Positions 6,537 through 50,125 of a DNA stretch of 64,000 nt are shown here, one piece after another. This DNA is from an uncultured archaeon (GTDB lineage Archaea > Altiarchaeota > Altiarchaeia > IMC4 > QMZM01). Position 1 is the stretch's first letter. Each line of letters opens with the position of its first letter. The DNA lies in the NCBI GenBank assembly GCA_964549685.1, contig CAZJVE010000001.1, forward strand, positions 107,906 to 171,905. The letters run 5' to 3'. The notes under the pieces were generated by a model, which saw nothing but the letters and a program-made list of their open reading frames with translations, did not search any database and had not been told where the DNA came from. A program made the position numbers and the translations under genes.

Positions 6537-6699
6537 TATTAAAACGATTATAGAATGAGATAATAAGATATGCGGTTACAGATAGAATCGGTCTATGCGC
6601 CAGCAGGGGCGTTGAAACATCTTCTGCCCCGCTATTTATATAGATTCCTCTTAAATTAGATAAATCCAAAATAGCCTATATAGCCTAAATAGATTTAAG

Positions 6700-7620
6700 A
6701 TGGAACTCAGGAAGATTCAGCTTACAGGAGAAACGACCTTTATTGTTTCGTTGCCCAAGAAATGGGTCACCAAGAACAATCTGGTAAAGGGAGATATTGT
6801 AGCAATCTTGGAAAAGGAGGACGAGCTGGTTATCAGGCCGAAGAGTGAGAAGGGTTATGTTACTGAGATAAAGATAAAGCCTGAAAGCGACCTGGAGCTG
6901 ATAAAGAGGCTCATTATCACAAGGTATATTCAGGGGTACGACGGAATCTTCGTTACATCAAAGAAGCACATATCGCAGGACTTCAGAAAGGGTCTGGAAG
7001 GGGTGCCCATGTTTCTTATAGGGCTTGAACCCTTTGGTGGAAGCTCCAACGAAATTACATTTAGAATGCTGACCAAGGAAAAGGCCGAAATCATTGAGTC
7101 TGTCAGCAGGATGCACGAGATATCAGTCACGTCATTGAATGAGCTGATGGATCAGATAGACCTTGGCAAATATGAGAAGGACGTGCTTAATGGAATAATA
7201 ATGAGAGATAATGATGTAGATAAATTCTACTTCCTTATCCTGAGACAGCTGTCCTCGAGGTCGGGAAGAGAGGTAATTCCATTGATACAGATTATAAAGA
7301 GTATAGAGAGGATTTCAGACCACGTAGAGAGGATAGCGCGGTTGATGATAGAGAGGGGGAGAATCAATAAGAAGGACGTCGTCCAGTATAAAAGGTTGAT
7401 TGAGCTATATAATGATGCCATGCTTGCCCTGAGGTCTGAAAACATACATATAGCAAATGAGGTCATAAAGGATGTCAGGAGGATGAGGGAGGACGATGAG
7501 ATTCTGCTGGACAAGCTCCTGCAGAAAAAGACCGGCGGCTCCCTCCTCATACTCGAGAGTTTCAAGAGGATTGGCGAATACATATCCGACATTGCGGAGG
7601 CGGTAATTAATCTATCATAG
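6700..7620 (+). CDS. PhoU-domain phosphate-uptake regulator homologue with N-terminal AbrB/SpoVT-like domain
   Basis: Archaeal PhoU-like architecture with two helical PhoU repeats. Confidence 0.6.
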   Translation: MELRKIQLTGETTFIVSLPKKWVTKNNLVKGDIVAILEKEDELVIRPKSEKGYVTEIKIKPESDLELIKRLIITRYIQGYDGIFVTSKKHISQDFRKGLEGVPMFLIGLEPFGGSSNEITFRMLTKEKAEIIESVSRMHEISVTSLNELMDQIDLGKYEKDVLNGIIMRDNDVDKFYFLILRQLSSRSGREVIPLIQIIKSIERISDHVERIARLMIERGRINKKDVVQYKRLIELYNDAMLALRSENIHIANEVIKDVRRMREDDEILLDKLLQKKTGGSLLILESFKRIGEYISDIAEAVINLS

Positions 7621-30976: not shown

Positions 30977-32392
30977 ATGGAGAAGCTGGATAAAATACTT
31001 ATCATAGGCTCCGGCCCCATACAGATTGGGCAGGCTGCGGAATTCGACTATAGTGGGAGCCAGGCCTGCCTCTCGCTGAGGGAGGAAGGGAAGACGGTGG
31101 TTCTTGTGAATTCTAACCCGGCTACAATAATGACGGAGCCGGACATTGCGGACATAATCTACATCGAGCCCCTGGTTCCGGAGGTTGTTGCAAAGATTAT
31201 AGAGAAGGAGAAGCCAGACGGGATTCTGCCCACGATGGGGGGACAGACCGGCCTGAACCTTGCTTCTGCCCTGGCAGTTATGGGTGTCTTTGAAGAACAT
31301 AACGTAAAGATACTTGGAACGCCGATAGAGACGATAAAGAACGGCGAGGACAGGGACTCGTTTGCTAACCTTATGAGAGAGATTAACGAGCCAGTGCCCC
31401 CAAGCAAGGCGGTAAATTCGTTCATTGAGGCAAAGGAGGCTGCGGATGAGATTGGCTATCCAGTCATTGTCAGGCCTGCCTACACTCTTGGCGGAGGAGG
31501 GGGCGGAATTGCAGAGAACGAGGAGGAGCTCGAGAGGATAGCAAGGCACGGCCTGCAGCTGAGTATGATAAACCAGGTTCTGATTGAACAGTCGCTCATT
31601 GGCTGGTATGAGTTCGAGTATGAGGTGATGAGAGACTCCGCGGATAACTGTATAACTATATGCTCGATGGAGAATTTCGACCCGATGGGGATTCATACCG
31701 GCGAGAGCATAGTCGTTGCCCCTGCCCAGACTCTGAGTGACGTGGATAACCAGATGCTCAGGAGCGCTTCGTTAAAGATTATAAGGGCTCTGGGCGTTGA
31801 AGGAGGGTGCAACATACAGTTTGCTTTGCATCCCGAAACCAGGGAGTATATGGTGATAGAGGTCAATCCCCGAGTTTCAAGGTCGTCAGCACTGGCTTCC
31901 AAGGCAACCGGCTATCCGATAGCAAGAGTTGCAGCAAAGGTCGCGATAGGAAAAACCCTGGACGAGATTCCGAACGAGGTTACCAAGAAAACACCATCTT
32001 CTTTCGAGCCGTCAATAGACTATATCGTGCTGAAGATCCCGAGATGGCCCTTTGACAAGTTCAGGGACATTGACAGGACCATAGAAACGCAGATGAAGGC
32101 AACGGGAGAGGTCATGTCCATAGGCAGAACATTCGAGGAGGCGCTGCAGAAGGCGATAAATTCCCTGGACGTTGGGAAGGTGGGAATCAGCGGCATGGGC
32201 GAAACGGACATTGACAAGATTAAGGCAAAAATTGAAACCCCGAACGACGAGAGGATGTTCTATATTGTCGATGGGTTCAAGGCAGGCATGTCTGTCGATG
32301 AGATTAATGAGATTTCCCACATCTGCCCCTGGTTCCTGGAGAAGATTAAGGGGCTGGTTGATACAGCAGAGAAGTTTAAGATTGCTATTTAA
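30977..32392 (+). CDS. carB: Carbamoyl-phosphate synthase large subunit, N-terminal half (split gene)
   Basis: Complete first ATP-grasp domain and the start of the oligomerisation domain; stop after ~471 aa, as in split carB of some methanogens; C-half not in the window. Confidence 0.8.
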
Positions 32393-32450: not shown

Positions 32451-33155
32451 ATGAGATTTCCGGCGCTTGGTCCTGATCTTGCAGAGTTCGTAGGTGTGCT
32501 CCTAGGTGACGGTTCAATAGGCAGATATGAGTGTCGTGCAGGAGATAAAATCAAAATCCAACATAGAGTAAAAGTAACCGGTGATGGGGAAGAGGACCTG
32601 CCATATTTCAAGGAGTTTTTGTCCCCATTAATGACAAACCTCTTTGGTAAAGGGCCGTTGCTTCGTTTCAAAAGAAACGAAAGGACTGCAGAACTCGCAT
32701 ATTTTGGTAAGGAGTTATATGAATTCTTAATTGGATTAGGTATGGTTTCCGCCCCAAAGAGAAATAGAGCAATAATTCCTCCTTTTGTATTTGAGAAAAA
32801 TCTTGAATTGCATTTCCTGAGGGGTTTGTTTGACACAGATGGGTGTTTAGTATTTGACAAACAGCACAAGGATATTCATTACTACCCCAGAATAGAGATA
32901 AAGATGTTGTCGTGTCCTATGAGGGAGCAATTGTTGAGTATACTGTCAGATAGAGGGTTCAGATATATAACTTCACCCCAACCTAATGAGGGCTTGAGGA
33001 TACAGATGAATGGTAAGAAAATATTTGAGAGGTGGATGAAGGATATTGGGTTCAATAACCAGAAACACGTAAGCAAGTATGATGTATGGAGTAAGTTTGG
33101 ATATTACACACCAAATACCACACTGAAGGAAAGAATCGATATTCTAGCGCAGTGA
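32451..33155 (+). CDS. Free-standing double-motif LAGLIDADG homing endonuclease
   Basis: Two LAGLIDADG motifs (VLLGDGSIG and LRGLFDTDGCL) about 100 aa apart; AT-rich compared with its neighbours. Confidence 0.75.
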   Translation: MRFPALGPDLAEFVGVLLGDGSIGRYECRAGDKIKIQHRVKVTGDGEEDLPYFKEFLSPLMTNLFGKGPLLRFKRNERTAELAYFGKELYEFLIGLGMVSAPKRNRAIIPPFVFEKNLELHFLRGLFDTDGCLVFDKQHKDIHYYPRIEIKMLSCPMREQLLSILSDRGFRYITSPQPNEGLRIQMNGKKIFERWMKDIGFNNQKHVSKYDVWSKFGYYTPNTTLKERIDILAQ

Positions 33156-33228
33156 TTGCTATTTAACGCCTTATTCTGAAAGTATTAAACGCGAGGTTGC
33201 TGTTCACCGTAGCGAAATAGTACCCTAT

Positions 33229-33381
33229 AGCGGGATTGAGCAGCCAGGAGTGCTCGTCGGACGTATGGAGGTGTTATACATGCTCGTGCGGGCGAAGCTC
33301 ATATGAGGGTTTTTAACCAATCGTGAGAAAAAGTGCTTCTGAGAGACCCGAAGGTCGGTGGTTCAAATCCACCTCCCGCTA
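33229..33381 (+). tRNA. Initiator-type tRNA-Met(CAT) with two predicted introns (exons 33229..33260, 33297..33303, 33346..33381)
   Basis: A1:U72 acceptor AGCGGGA/TCCCGCT, D-loop AGCCAGGAG, T-arm GGTGG-TTCAAAT-CCACC, variable AGGTC. Joining the three exons gives anticodon arm UCGGG-CUCAUAA-CCCGA, an initiator signature. Confidence 0.55.
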
Positions 33382-33412
33382 TATTTTCTTTTAAAATTAT
33401 GGTGGTTGGTAA

Positions 33413-33772
33413 ATGGATATAACAACGAATACAGTTCAGGTTCTCACAGGCTCAACAATAGCTATACTTGCAACTTTTGTATATTCGGCACTCACTCGTG
33501 CTTTTTTGAGTGGGGGGTCATTCCGTAAAAAATGGGAGGCTGTGTTTATCACATTAGGAACAGCCTTTGCATTAGGCATGTTAACACCAAGCATAAACGA
33601 ATTCTGGCGGGAAGTAATCCCTCAAATTACTTATCTTCAATTGGTTGGTGTTTTGATAATGGTCGGAACATTCAGCGTAAATCAAATGGTGCATAATTGG
33701 CGACATAGCACCGGAACATCAATCATTCTCTACGGTGCCGGGTTGATACTCTTTGGTTATCGATACATATAA
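33413..33772 (+). CDS. Hypothetical membrane protein
   Basis: Four predicted TM helices. Confidence 0.4.
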   Translation: MDITTNTVQVLTGSTIAILATFVYSALTRAFLSGGSFRKKWEAVFITLGTAFALGMLTPSINEFWREVIPQITYLQLVGVLIMVGTFSVNQMVHNWRHSTGTSIILYGAGLILFGYRYI

Positions 33773-49849: not shown

Positions 49850-49866
49850 TTATCCAATCATTCGTT

Positions 49867-49941
49867 GGGCCCGTAGCCTAGCCTGGATAGGGCACCGGAC
49901 TTCTAATCCGGAGATCACGGGTTCGAATCCCGTCGGGTCCG
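49867..49941 (+). tRNA. tRNA-Arg (anticodon TCT)
   Basis: Cloverleaf: acceptor GGGCCCG/CGGGTCC, D-arm GCCT..GGGC, anticodon arm CCGGA-CTTCTAA-TCCGG, T-arm ACGGG-TTCGAAT-CCCGT. Confidence 0.85.
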
Positions 49942-50125
49942 TTGAACTGGCGTCAGTGTGGCGGAGCGACTTCGTCGCTCCGACATATGTCCGAGAGGCT
50001 GCGCCTCTCGGCCACATTCACACCGGAGCGAGTTTGTGGGTTCTTTGAACCCACATAACGCACTGTGAATTCCCCTGCGGTTCAGGGGGGAATTCTGCCA
50101 GTCACGTGTGGGTTTTTCTTTTAGA
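49942..50125 (+). other. Compact multi-hairpin structured element immediately downstream of tRNA-Arg, ending in an oligo-T tract (candidate ncRNA or DNA palindrome cluster)
   Basis: Four near-perfect stem-loops: 49963..49981, 49991..50011, 50036..50054 and 50067..50095. Flanking imperfect direct repeats GGCGTCAGTGTGG / GCCAGTCACGTGTGG. T-run at 50111..50125. Confidence 0.5.

Follow-up and report, generated by a model that had tools for sequence, protein, structure and literature searches.

How does an archaeon obtain its initiator tRNA from a gene cut into three pieces, the middle one only seven nucleotides long, and what keeps the two introns responsible in place? These questions are raised by positions 33,229 to 33,381 of a 64,000-nucleotide stretch of contig CAZJVE010000001.1 (assembly GCA_964549685.1, forward-strand positions 107,906 to 171,905; hereafter the window). 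An earlier note on this DNA had read the locus as an initiator tRNA-Met gene with one intron at a non-canonical position, 30/31, a second at the canonical 37/38 site and a 7-nt exon between them. Splicing in silico, the geometry of the intron boundaries and comparison with uninterrupted orthologues all bear that reading out, and every exon and intron coordinate proved exact. The gene belongs to a known class, the multi-intron archaeal tRNA genes, and very probably, to judge from sequence, serves an uncultivated archaeon of the Candidatus Altiarchaeales as its functional initiator tRNA-Met gene, with two introns of the bulge-helix-bulge (BHB) type. The pieces of the gene and the signals that appear to frame it are as follows.

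33183-33189 (+): TATA-like box, TATTAAA, read from the sequence and a putative promoter element
33211-33228 (+): probable 5' leader, placed by alignment with the related locus L001 and starting with an orphan AGCG (33211-33214)
33229-33260 (+): exon 1, 32 nt, tRNA positions 1-30 (5' strand of the acceptor stem, D-arm, 5' strand of the anticodon stem to G30)
33261-33296 (+): intron 1 at 30/31, of the relaxed BHB type, 36 nt
33297-33303 (+): exon 2, the micro-exon GCTCATA, 7 nt, comprising G31, C32, U33, the anticodon CAU and A37
33304-33345 (+): intron 2 at 37/38, of the canonical BHB form (hBHBh'), 42 nt
33346-33381 (+): exon 3, tRNA positions 38-73 (A38, 3' strand of the anticodon stem, variable loop AGGTC, T-arm, 3' strand of the acceptor stem, discriminator A)
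33382-33392 (+): T-rich stretch TATTTTCTTTT, a likely transcription stop

When 33261-33296 and 33304-33345 are cut out, the end of exon 1 (GTGCTCGTCGG) meets GCTCATA, which in turn meets the start of exon 3 (ACCCGAAGG), and the resulting 75-mer is called by ARAGORN as tRNA-Met(CAT) with a flawless cloverleaf. Archaeal initiator tRNAs-Met are marked by A1:U72, A11:U24 and three consecutive G:C pairs at 29-31/39-41. The spliced 75-mer has all of these, its 7-nt anticodon loop CUCAUAA (anticodon CAU) being closed by G29G30G31:C39C40C41, and carries in addition G18G19, the variable loop AGGUC and the T-loop UUCAAAU; CCA is not encoded at the 3' end of the gene. The product is identical to that of another interrupted gene, at locus L130, and differs from four uninterrupted genes (L166, L171, L185 and L237) solely by a compensatory difference at one pair, A7:U66 here against G7:C66 there. 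Because the match to uninterrupted genes is complete apart from pair 7:66, the exon boundaries are independently validated.

The earlier note had proposed looking for BHB motifs at both junctions, and in the published register (PMC4090602), in which a 4-bp central helix is flanked by two 3-nt bulges and cleavage follows the second base of each bulge, both junctions show the geometry with all four central pairs formed at a fixed position. The central helix of intron 1 pairs 33255-33258 with 33291-33294 (C25-C28 with GGCG, including one G:U), its bulges are 33259-33261 (GG/A, the slash marking the cut) and 33295-33297 (AA/G), and its inner helix (h') comprises 7 bp, 33262-33268 with 33284-33290. 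At intron 2 the central helix pairs 33298-33301 with 33340-33343 (CUCA with UGAG), the bulges are 33302-33304 (UA/U) and 33344-33346 (AG/A), and the inner helix has 4 bp (33305-33308 with 33336-33339); its outer helix (h) is the 5-bp anticodon stem, available after removal of intron 1, which completes the canonical hBHBh' form. In the published register the first two anticodon bases lie within the central helix (PMC4090602). For any one fixed junction in the window, geometry of this kind is expected by chance at rates of 7.7e-5 (intron 1) and 6.7e-4 (intron 2). A palindrome to which the earlier note drew attention, CTCATATGAG (33298-33307), is indeed present and its halves feed the strands of the second motif, CTCA pairing with TGAG at 33340-33343 and GAG(G) with CTTC at 33336-33339, but it is not itself a structural element. 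The micro-exon is fully accounted for by the two motifs: one nucleotide (G31) ends the 3' bulge of the first, four (CUCA) supply the 5' side of the central helix of the second, and two (UA) open the 5' bulge of that second motif. On this geometry seven nucleotides would be the shortest exon that two abutting BHBs can leave.

Comparison of related genes in fixed-register constructs shows how the first motif has been maintained. Its positions are paired in 88.6% of cells, against 25-50% when the partners are slid; the central helix and both bulges are invariant among eight distinct sequences; and the first five pairs of the inner helix are kept in all eight by exchanges of the kind C:G/U:A, C:G/U:G/U:A and A:U/G:U/G:C. 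In four inner-helix pairs both partners have changed, C:G to U:A among them, and the covariation score is attained by only 8 of 500 shuffles. For the second motif 88.4% of cells are paired, against at most 56% when slid.

The earlier note had named Thermoproteales and some DPANN lineages as homes of multi-intron tRNAs, a pointer that proves right and can be made specific: the MCM protein of the window is 95% identical to proteins labelled Candidatus Altiarchaeales, although no record of the exact protein was found. The closest relative found, L001/L002, shares about 88% nucleotide identity over 15 kb and the gene order CarB-N / tRNA / SPP / MCM, and a 62-nt block upstream of the tRNA gene, including the TATA-like box (which in L001 precedes the start of the tRNA by about 22 nt), is 95% identical between the two. 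The initiator gene of L001 (about 6650-6757, minus strand) has no intron in its anticodon arm. It bears instead a single 33-nt intron at 4/5, in the acceptor stem, whose motif is a full hBHBh' (H 4, h' 3, h 3) and whose excision leaves a perfect cloverleaf; a 4/5 intron with a canonical BHB also occurs in L190, together with one at 37/38. The orphan AGCG in the window is the counterpart of the 4-nt first exon of L001, the intact tRNA 5' end following 14 nt on, and the same relic is present in L208. A third intron at the AGCG...AGCG repeat of the window was considered and rejected, as none of the five equivalent 18-nt excisions fits a BHB, and A1 is therefore placed at 33229. Nor is there a recombination footprint: identity to L001 is flat at 85-93% on both sides of the locus, with no dip, and the differences between the two are indels confined to the tRNA locus.

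Beyond this pair, a metagenome scan with a 23-nt D-arm sequence recovered 103 loci and 107 initiator genes with that sequence. Introns are absent from 57 of these genes, 14 have an intron at 37/38 alone, three have one at 4/5, three have a T-loop intron alone, and eight carry the 30/31 and 37/38 introns together, four of the eight (L208, L130/L165 and L219) with a further intron at 59/60. (A separate scan of a genome collection used a 3'-half pattern that fits bacterial tRNA-fMet too, and the matches listed were almost without archaea.) In all, the 30/31 and 37/38 pair recurs in at least ten divergent metagenomic loci: the window and L232, which is the window organism in another dataset, L208, L130/L165, L215, L235, L233, L187, L198, L219 and L239. 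The window sequence also recurs in Logan SRR24302412, and metatranscriptomes of Candidatus Altiarchaeum are available (PMC12133352). The micro-exon GCTCATA is unchanged in every 30/31 carrier and, because each 30/31 intron is accompanied by a 37/38 intron, is a stable inherited feature. The 59/60 introns have full hBHBh' motifs (L208, 222-406; L130, 1363-1542; L219, 9010-8828, minus strand), and L239 (614-802; also L240) has four BHB introns, at 14/15, 30/31, 37/38 and 45/46, that splice to a perfect 75-nt cloverleaf with CCA encoded.

Two further observations concern the relatives' initiator genes. The anticodon loop reads CCCAUAA, with C33, in L131, L137, L145, L151, L182, L212, L228, L243 and L244, some of these genes bearing 62-69-nt T-loop introns; U33 is near-universal in tRNAs. 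In L132, L199, L214, L155, L168 and L186, a partial second T-arm and acceptor 3' end lies 100-150 nt downstream of an intact intron-less initiator gene, and these partial copies look like att-site remnants of integrated elements.

How secure, then, is the identification? A different division into exons and introns, such as a single large intron or one that yields another anticodon, is extremely improbable. BHB-like pairs do arise commonly by chance (55 in a 353-nt scan, including 33289..33345), but sliding either junction always alters the mature sequence, removal of 33261-33345 as one piece destroys the anticodon loop, and only the two-intron parse gives a cloverleaf, one that matches the uninterrupted orthologues base for base outside the pair already described; a single intron with another anticodon, which the earlier note had named as fatal to its reading, is in this way refuted in silico. 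The same note had entertained a pseudogene, and a decaying tRNA gene with two insertions, its working counterpart encoded elsewhere, is very unlikely. Such a view would draw on the silence of the standard finders, since ARAGORN, whether or not its intron option is on, does not call the unspliced locus and does so only after manual deletion of one of the two introns, and Rfam leaves it unmatched both at the gathering threshold and at E<=1. Against it stand exons that are fully intact, insertions placed exactly where BHB geometry permits clean excision, an orthologous position at the initiator locus of the relatives, the conservation of exons and first BHB in about ten divergent lineages, where substitutions in the intron helix compensate one another, and the lack of any other initiator anticodon arm within the window. 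Several points nevertheless weigh against a functional two-intron gene. Expression and splicing are predicted from DNA, and the genome is seen through 64 kb, so that a second, uninterrupted initiator gene may lie outside. Intron 1 departs from the strict hBHBh' form, its outer helix having 0 bp in all ten loci examined (nine distinct). Covariation in the second BHB does not exceed that of shuffles, and its central helix is degraded to two or three of four pairs in L187, L198, L219 and L233. Thermodynamic folding (minimum free energy) of the precursor does not recover the BHBs unaided, as is expected of bulged motifs. Finally, a tblastn search of the window with the Methanocaldococcus jannaschii splicing endonuclease (EndA) found no match. 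In about 1.65 Mb of fetched loci the EndA matches lie only beside intron-less initiator genes, none of them at a locus that synteny had tied to Altiarchaeota in this analysis. Those homologues, 34-40% identical to the M. jannaschii enzyme and within a few kb of the initiator gene, occur in L129, L132, L136, L141, L142, L164, L191, L209, L221 and about 18 more.

The functional two-intron gene has clear counterparts among described systems. Since it lacks an outer helix, intron 1 is of the relaxed HBh'/BHL type and therefore requires a broad-specificity endonuclease; cleavage of relaxed motifs by broad-specificity EndA is established (PMC4090602, PMC4033280, PMC5829648). Multi-intron tRNA genes are known from Thermoproteales (Pyrobaculum, Thermofilum and Caldivirga; Sugahara 2007/2008, Fujishima 2010) and are covered by two reviews (PMC4033280, PMC3218864), where three introns is the stated maximum for an archaeal tRNA gene, a figure exceeded by the four of L239. 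As in the window, a single gene there can hold up to several short introns, BHB or relaxed-BHB, at both canonical and non-canonical sites; those genes need a broad-specificity EndA and differ in intron content among relatives. Unlike them, the present gene belongs to a DPANN-affiliated phylum, Altiarchaeota, and is an initiator gene with a fixed, inherited 30/31 and 37/38 pair, abutting BHBs and a 7-nt exon. Positions 30/31, 37/38 and 59/60 are known archaeal disruption sites: tRNA-Lys(CUU) is split at 30/31 in Nanoarchaeum equitans and Staphylothermus marinus, the initiator gene of N. equitans is split at 37/38, and that of Thermofilum pendens is permuted with a 59/60 junction and a 37/38 intron (PMC3218864). 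These cases thus share with the window family both the positions and the disrupted initiator, but they are trans-spliced or permuted, whereas the pieces in the window are collinear in one transcript. At tRNA-Thr(GGU) of Caldiarchaeum subterraneum, heterogeneity of the locus, an orphan 5' fragment and an adjacent mobile-element gene have been described (PMC3293823). Shared with the window are the variable number of introns at one locus, the orphan 5' piece of a tRNA upstream and the adjoining mobile-element gene. The differences are that the Caldiarchaeum neighbour is a recombinase/integrase-type element with att-site logic and that of the window a LAGLIDADG endonuclease, that the orphan in the window is only 4 nt long, 14 nt upstream, and that species at about 88% nucleotide identity are compared here, against strains in Caldiarchaeum.

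How two abutting motifs could be cut without losing seven nucleotides is a question on which one segment of intron 2 may bear.

33332-33341 (+): core conserved within intron 2, AGTGCTTCTG, able to pair with 33245-33254 of exon 1 (CAGGAGTGCT); a putative folding partner

The core, CTCATGAGA...GCAC.TC.TG, is common to the 37/38 introns of double-intron alleles and missing from 37/38-only introns. In the unconstrained fold of the precursor, 33245-33254 (D-loop and 3' strand of the D-stem) pairs with 33332-33341 in a 10-bp helix, here termed helix X. All ten family members show the complementarity at the corresponding site; 86.9% of cells are paired, against 32-54% when slid, and duplex energies run from -13.5 to -25 kcal/mol, where 37/38-only introns give -6 to -16. 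Variation on the intron side consists of wobble-compatible transitions only, and in L239 a change of exon U24 to C is matched by a change of intron A to G. Helix X adjoins the central helix of intron 1, being contiguous with it on the 5' strand, and can therefore replace the absent outer helix. An overlap with the 3' strands of the intron-2 BHB makes helix X and that motif mutually exclusive. A separate candidate role for intron 2, as a C/D box guide RNA like the one in the Haloferax tRNA-Trp intron (C box RUGAUGA and D box CUGA at guide spacing), was rejected because the D box is unconserved and the C box atypical: only (C/G)UGAGA is present, CUGA occurs in four of nine family members, and the spacer is 9-10 nt.

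In the pathway that we propose, transcription would start near 33211 from the conserved TATA-like promoter, RNase P would trim the leader, EndA would excise the two BHB-type introns, an RtcB-type ligase would join the exons and CCA would be added post-transcriptionally. Within this sequence the intron-2 segment would first pair with the exon-1 D-arm, lengthening the central helix of intron 1 as an outer helix would; once intron 1 had left, the anticodon stem would form and the same segment would rebuild the intron-2 BHB. Ordered splicing of this kind, intron 1 and then intron 2 through a segment that switches partners, would explain why the two introns travel together and would keep the 7-mer covalently attached throughout, never freed. 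Its probability we would put just short of even.

The second question, why the introns accumulate at this gene, leads to its 5' neighbour.

32451-33155 (+): free-standing open reading frame (ORF) for a double-motif LAGLIDADG homing-endonuclease-like protein, 234 aa, 73 nt upstream of the tRNA gene; absent from L001

The protein carries the motifs LLGDGS and GLFDTDG. G19 D20 G21 and D128 D130 G131 are invariant among 31 homologues, D20 and D130 being the catalytic aspartates. Taken singly, the sequence lies below the Pfam cut-off and matches I-Tsp061I and I-DmoI in the PDB at E about 1e-3. Homologues carry PF14528/PF03161/PF00961, and a profile of the 31 matches I-DmoI at 3.7e-9 and 2dch at 1.1e-8 (range for I-DmoI/I-Tsp061I, 4e-9 to 1e-8). 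These best structural relatives are likewise two-motif monomers with conserved catalytic Asp, but they are encoded inside BHB introns of archaeal rRNA genes, whereas the present ORF is free-standing, tRNA-linked and outside any intron or intein. A 774-bp cassette that contains it is flanked by a 13-bp direct repeat, GATTGCTATTTAA, from the end of CarB-N (32380-32392 and 33154-33166); the left junction, GGAGTGCTAAAATATCCCATATT, is common to L233 and L237, and the right junction is not shared. A BHB around the cassette was also sought and judged unconvincing, since just one of 14 registers qualified (H 4/4 and h' 3, with A:U and G:U pairs only), at a chance probability of about 1.5% that is a rough estimate and not the output of a tool.

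The family is linked to tRNA genes, mostly initiator genes. Homologues with 35-76% identity adjoin a tRNA gene in nine of nine contexts; eight of these are initiator genes, of which six are interrupted at 29-31. An intact gene lies directly 5' of a 30/31 and 37/38 initiator gene in L233 and L235, 146 nt 3' of the four-intron gene in L239, 5' of an initiator gene interrupted at 29/30 in L243 and 5' of another interrupted tRNA, for which no unique parse was reached, in L241. In L233 (3001-3738), L235 (3001-3765), L215 and L198 the ORF runs through exon 1 of the tRNA gene to a stop codon in intron 1, in a frame that differs by lineage, so that a single transcript must hold the endonuclease message and the pre-tRNA in overlap. 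Within the D-arm scan, homologues occur in L215 and L198 only, both double-intron carriers, so that with the window added all three loci with the gene carry the 30/31 intron, against two of 65 loci without it (table 3, 0; 2, 63; Fisher p = 2e-4, uncorrected for ancestry). With introns that cut the 5' side of the anticodon stem, the association of the family is strong but not absolute. There are hints in this that introns protect the initiator gene from the neighbouring endonuclease. Since synonymous sites are lacking in a tRNA gene, a spliceable intron is the only silent route to uncuttable DNA. The introns found at 29-31 and 37/38, and in an arms race also at 14/15, 45/46 and 59/60, up to four per gene, would then travel with the endonuclease gene. 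A partial parallel is collaborative homing in phages, in which a free-standing endonuclease mobilises a neighbouring intron that lacks one (PMC2790892). There too the endonuclease gene adjoins an intron-bearing gene. For the present family, gene and introns are present or absent together when the window is compared with L001, and both an intact gene and introns are wanting in L237, but the two are not found together in L130, L187, L219 or L244; the phage introns are self-splicing group I introns in protein genes, whereas those of the window, known from sequence, are protein-spliced BHB introns in a tRNA gene.

Both mechanistic proposals face serious rivals. The two BHB introns could be real but excised independently in any order, helix X having no role and the shared core reflecting common descent together with the constraints of the second BHB; this is a credible reading, if on balance a somewhat doubtful one. 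It is favoured by a feasible conformer that holds both central helices at once (-47.3 kcal/mol), by L243, whose 29/30 intron stands without any 37/38 partner and so counts against dependence on helix X, and by the helix itself, whose intron segment is partly under the constraint of the second BHB and whose exon side is invariant, so that shuffles cannot test it. Pulling the other way, the four pairs of helix X that escape that constraint are paired in 34 of 36 cells, one double change is seen, 30/31 introns are always found with a core-bearing 37/38 intron while 37/38-only introns have no core, and simultaneous cutting would release a 7-mer held by one base pair. As for the endonuclease, its gene may be a hitch-hiker that homes near a conserved tRNA gene, the introns having arisen independently through transposition, as in Thermoproteales, or integrative elements, as in Caldiarchaeum, and to this we give about an even chance. 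Some 30/31 carriers have no such gene (L130/L165, L187 and L219), L244 has an intact homologue next to an initiator gene that is free of introns and differs in its anticodon stem, both transposition and integrating elements are documented sources of new introns (PMC4033280, PMC3293823), and shared ancestry may underlie the association. A hitch-hiker accounts less readily for the contrast in the D-arm scan, for the five of seven intact-gene contexts (the window and six found by protein search) in which the initiator gene is interrupted at 29/30 or 30/31, for the position of the sole frameshifted copy (L237) beside an intron-less initiator gene, or for the window and L001 differing in the LAGLIDADG gene and the anticodon-arm introns together. 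That the I-DmoI-like family comprises tRNA-gene-specific homing endonucleases targeting the uninterrupted initiator anticodon arm, with the introns as immunity devices, is offered as a tentative and rather unlikely explanation.

Three features of the surrounding DNA may be recorded. carB is split, its N-terminal half forming a separate gene for 471 aa in the window (30977-32392, +), and the split is kept in all Altiarchaeales relatives seen. Between the tRNA gene and SPP, 33413-33772 (+) encodes a predicted membrane protein of 119 aa with no Pfam match, absent from L001 and present in L232. The intron-less tRNA-Arg(TCT) gene at 49866-49942 (+) is the sole tRNA gene in the window that standard tools recover.

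An essential initiator tRNA gene is thus invisible to ARAGORN and Rfam in this lineage. Altiarchaeales bins have been credited with 18-24 tRNAs each (PMC4975002), low counts that are consistent with such a gene being missed, and the finding also fits a published caution that disrupted tRNA genes go unseen in DPANN genomes (PMC5829648). In the literature searched, no published report of tRNA introns in Altiarchaeales was found. The gene itself is of a known class; the proposed dependency of one intron on the other and the possible link to an endonuclease are new leads. The fixed 30/31 and 37/38 pair would provide a natural substrate for the study of minimal BHB spacing, of micro-exon retention and of one intron serving as folding partner for the removal of the other. 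Randau and Soll (2008) proposed that disruption protects tRNA genes against selfish DNA, a hypothesis summarised in PMC3293823, which remarks on the lack of direct evidence; if the introns do confer immunity, the present family would be the first direct genomic handle on that proposal. More broadly, the LAGLIDADG link makes the old question of why tRNA introns accumulate in archaea directly testable.

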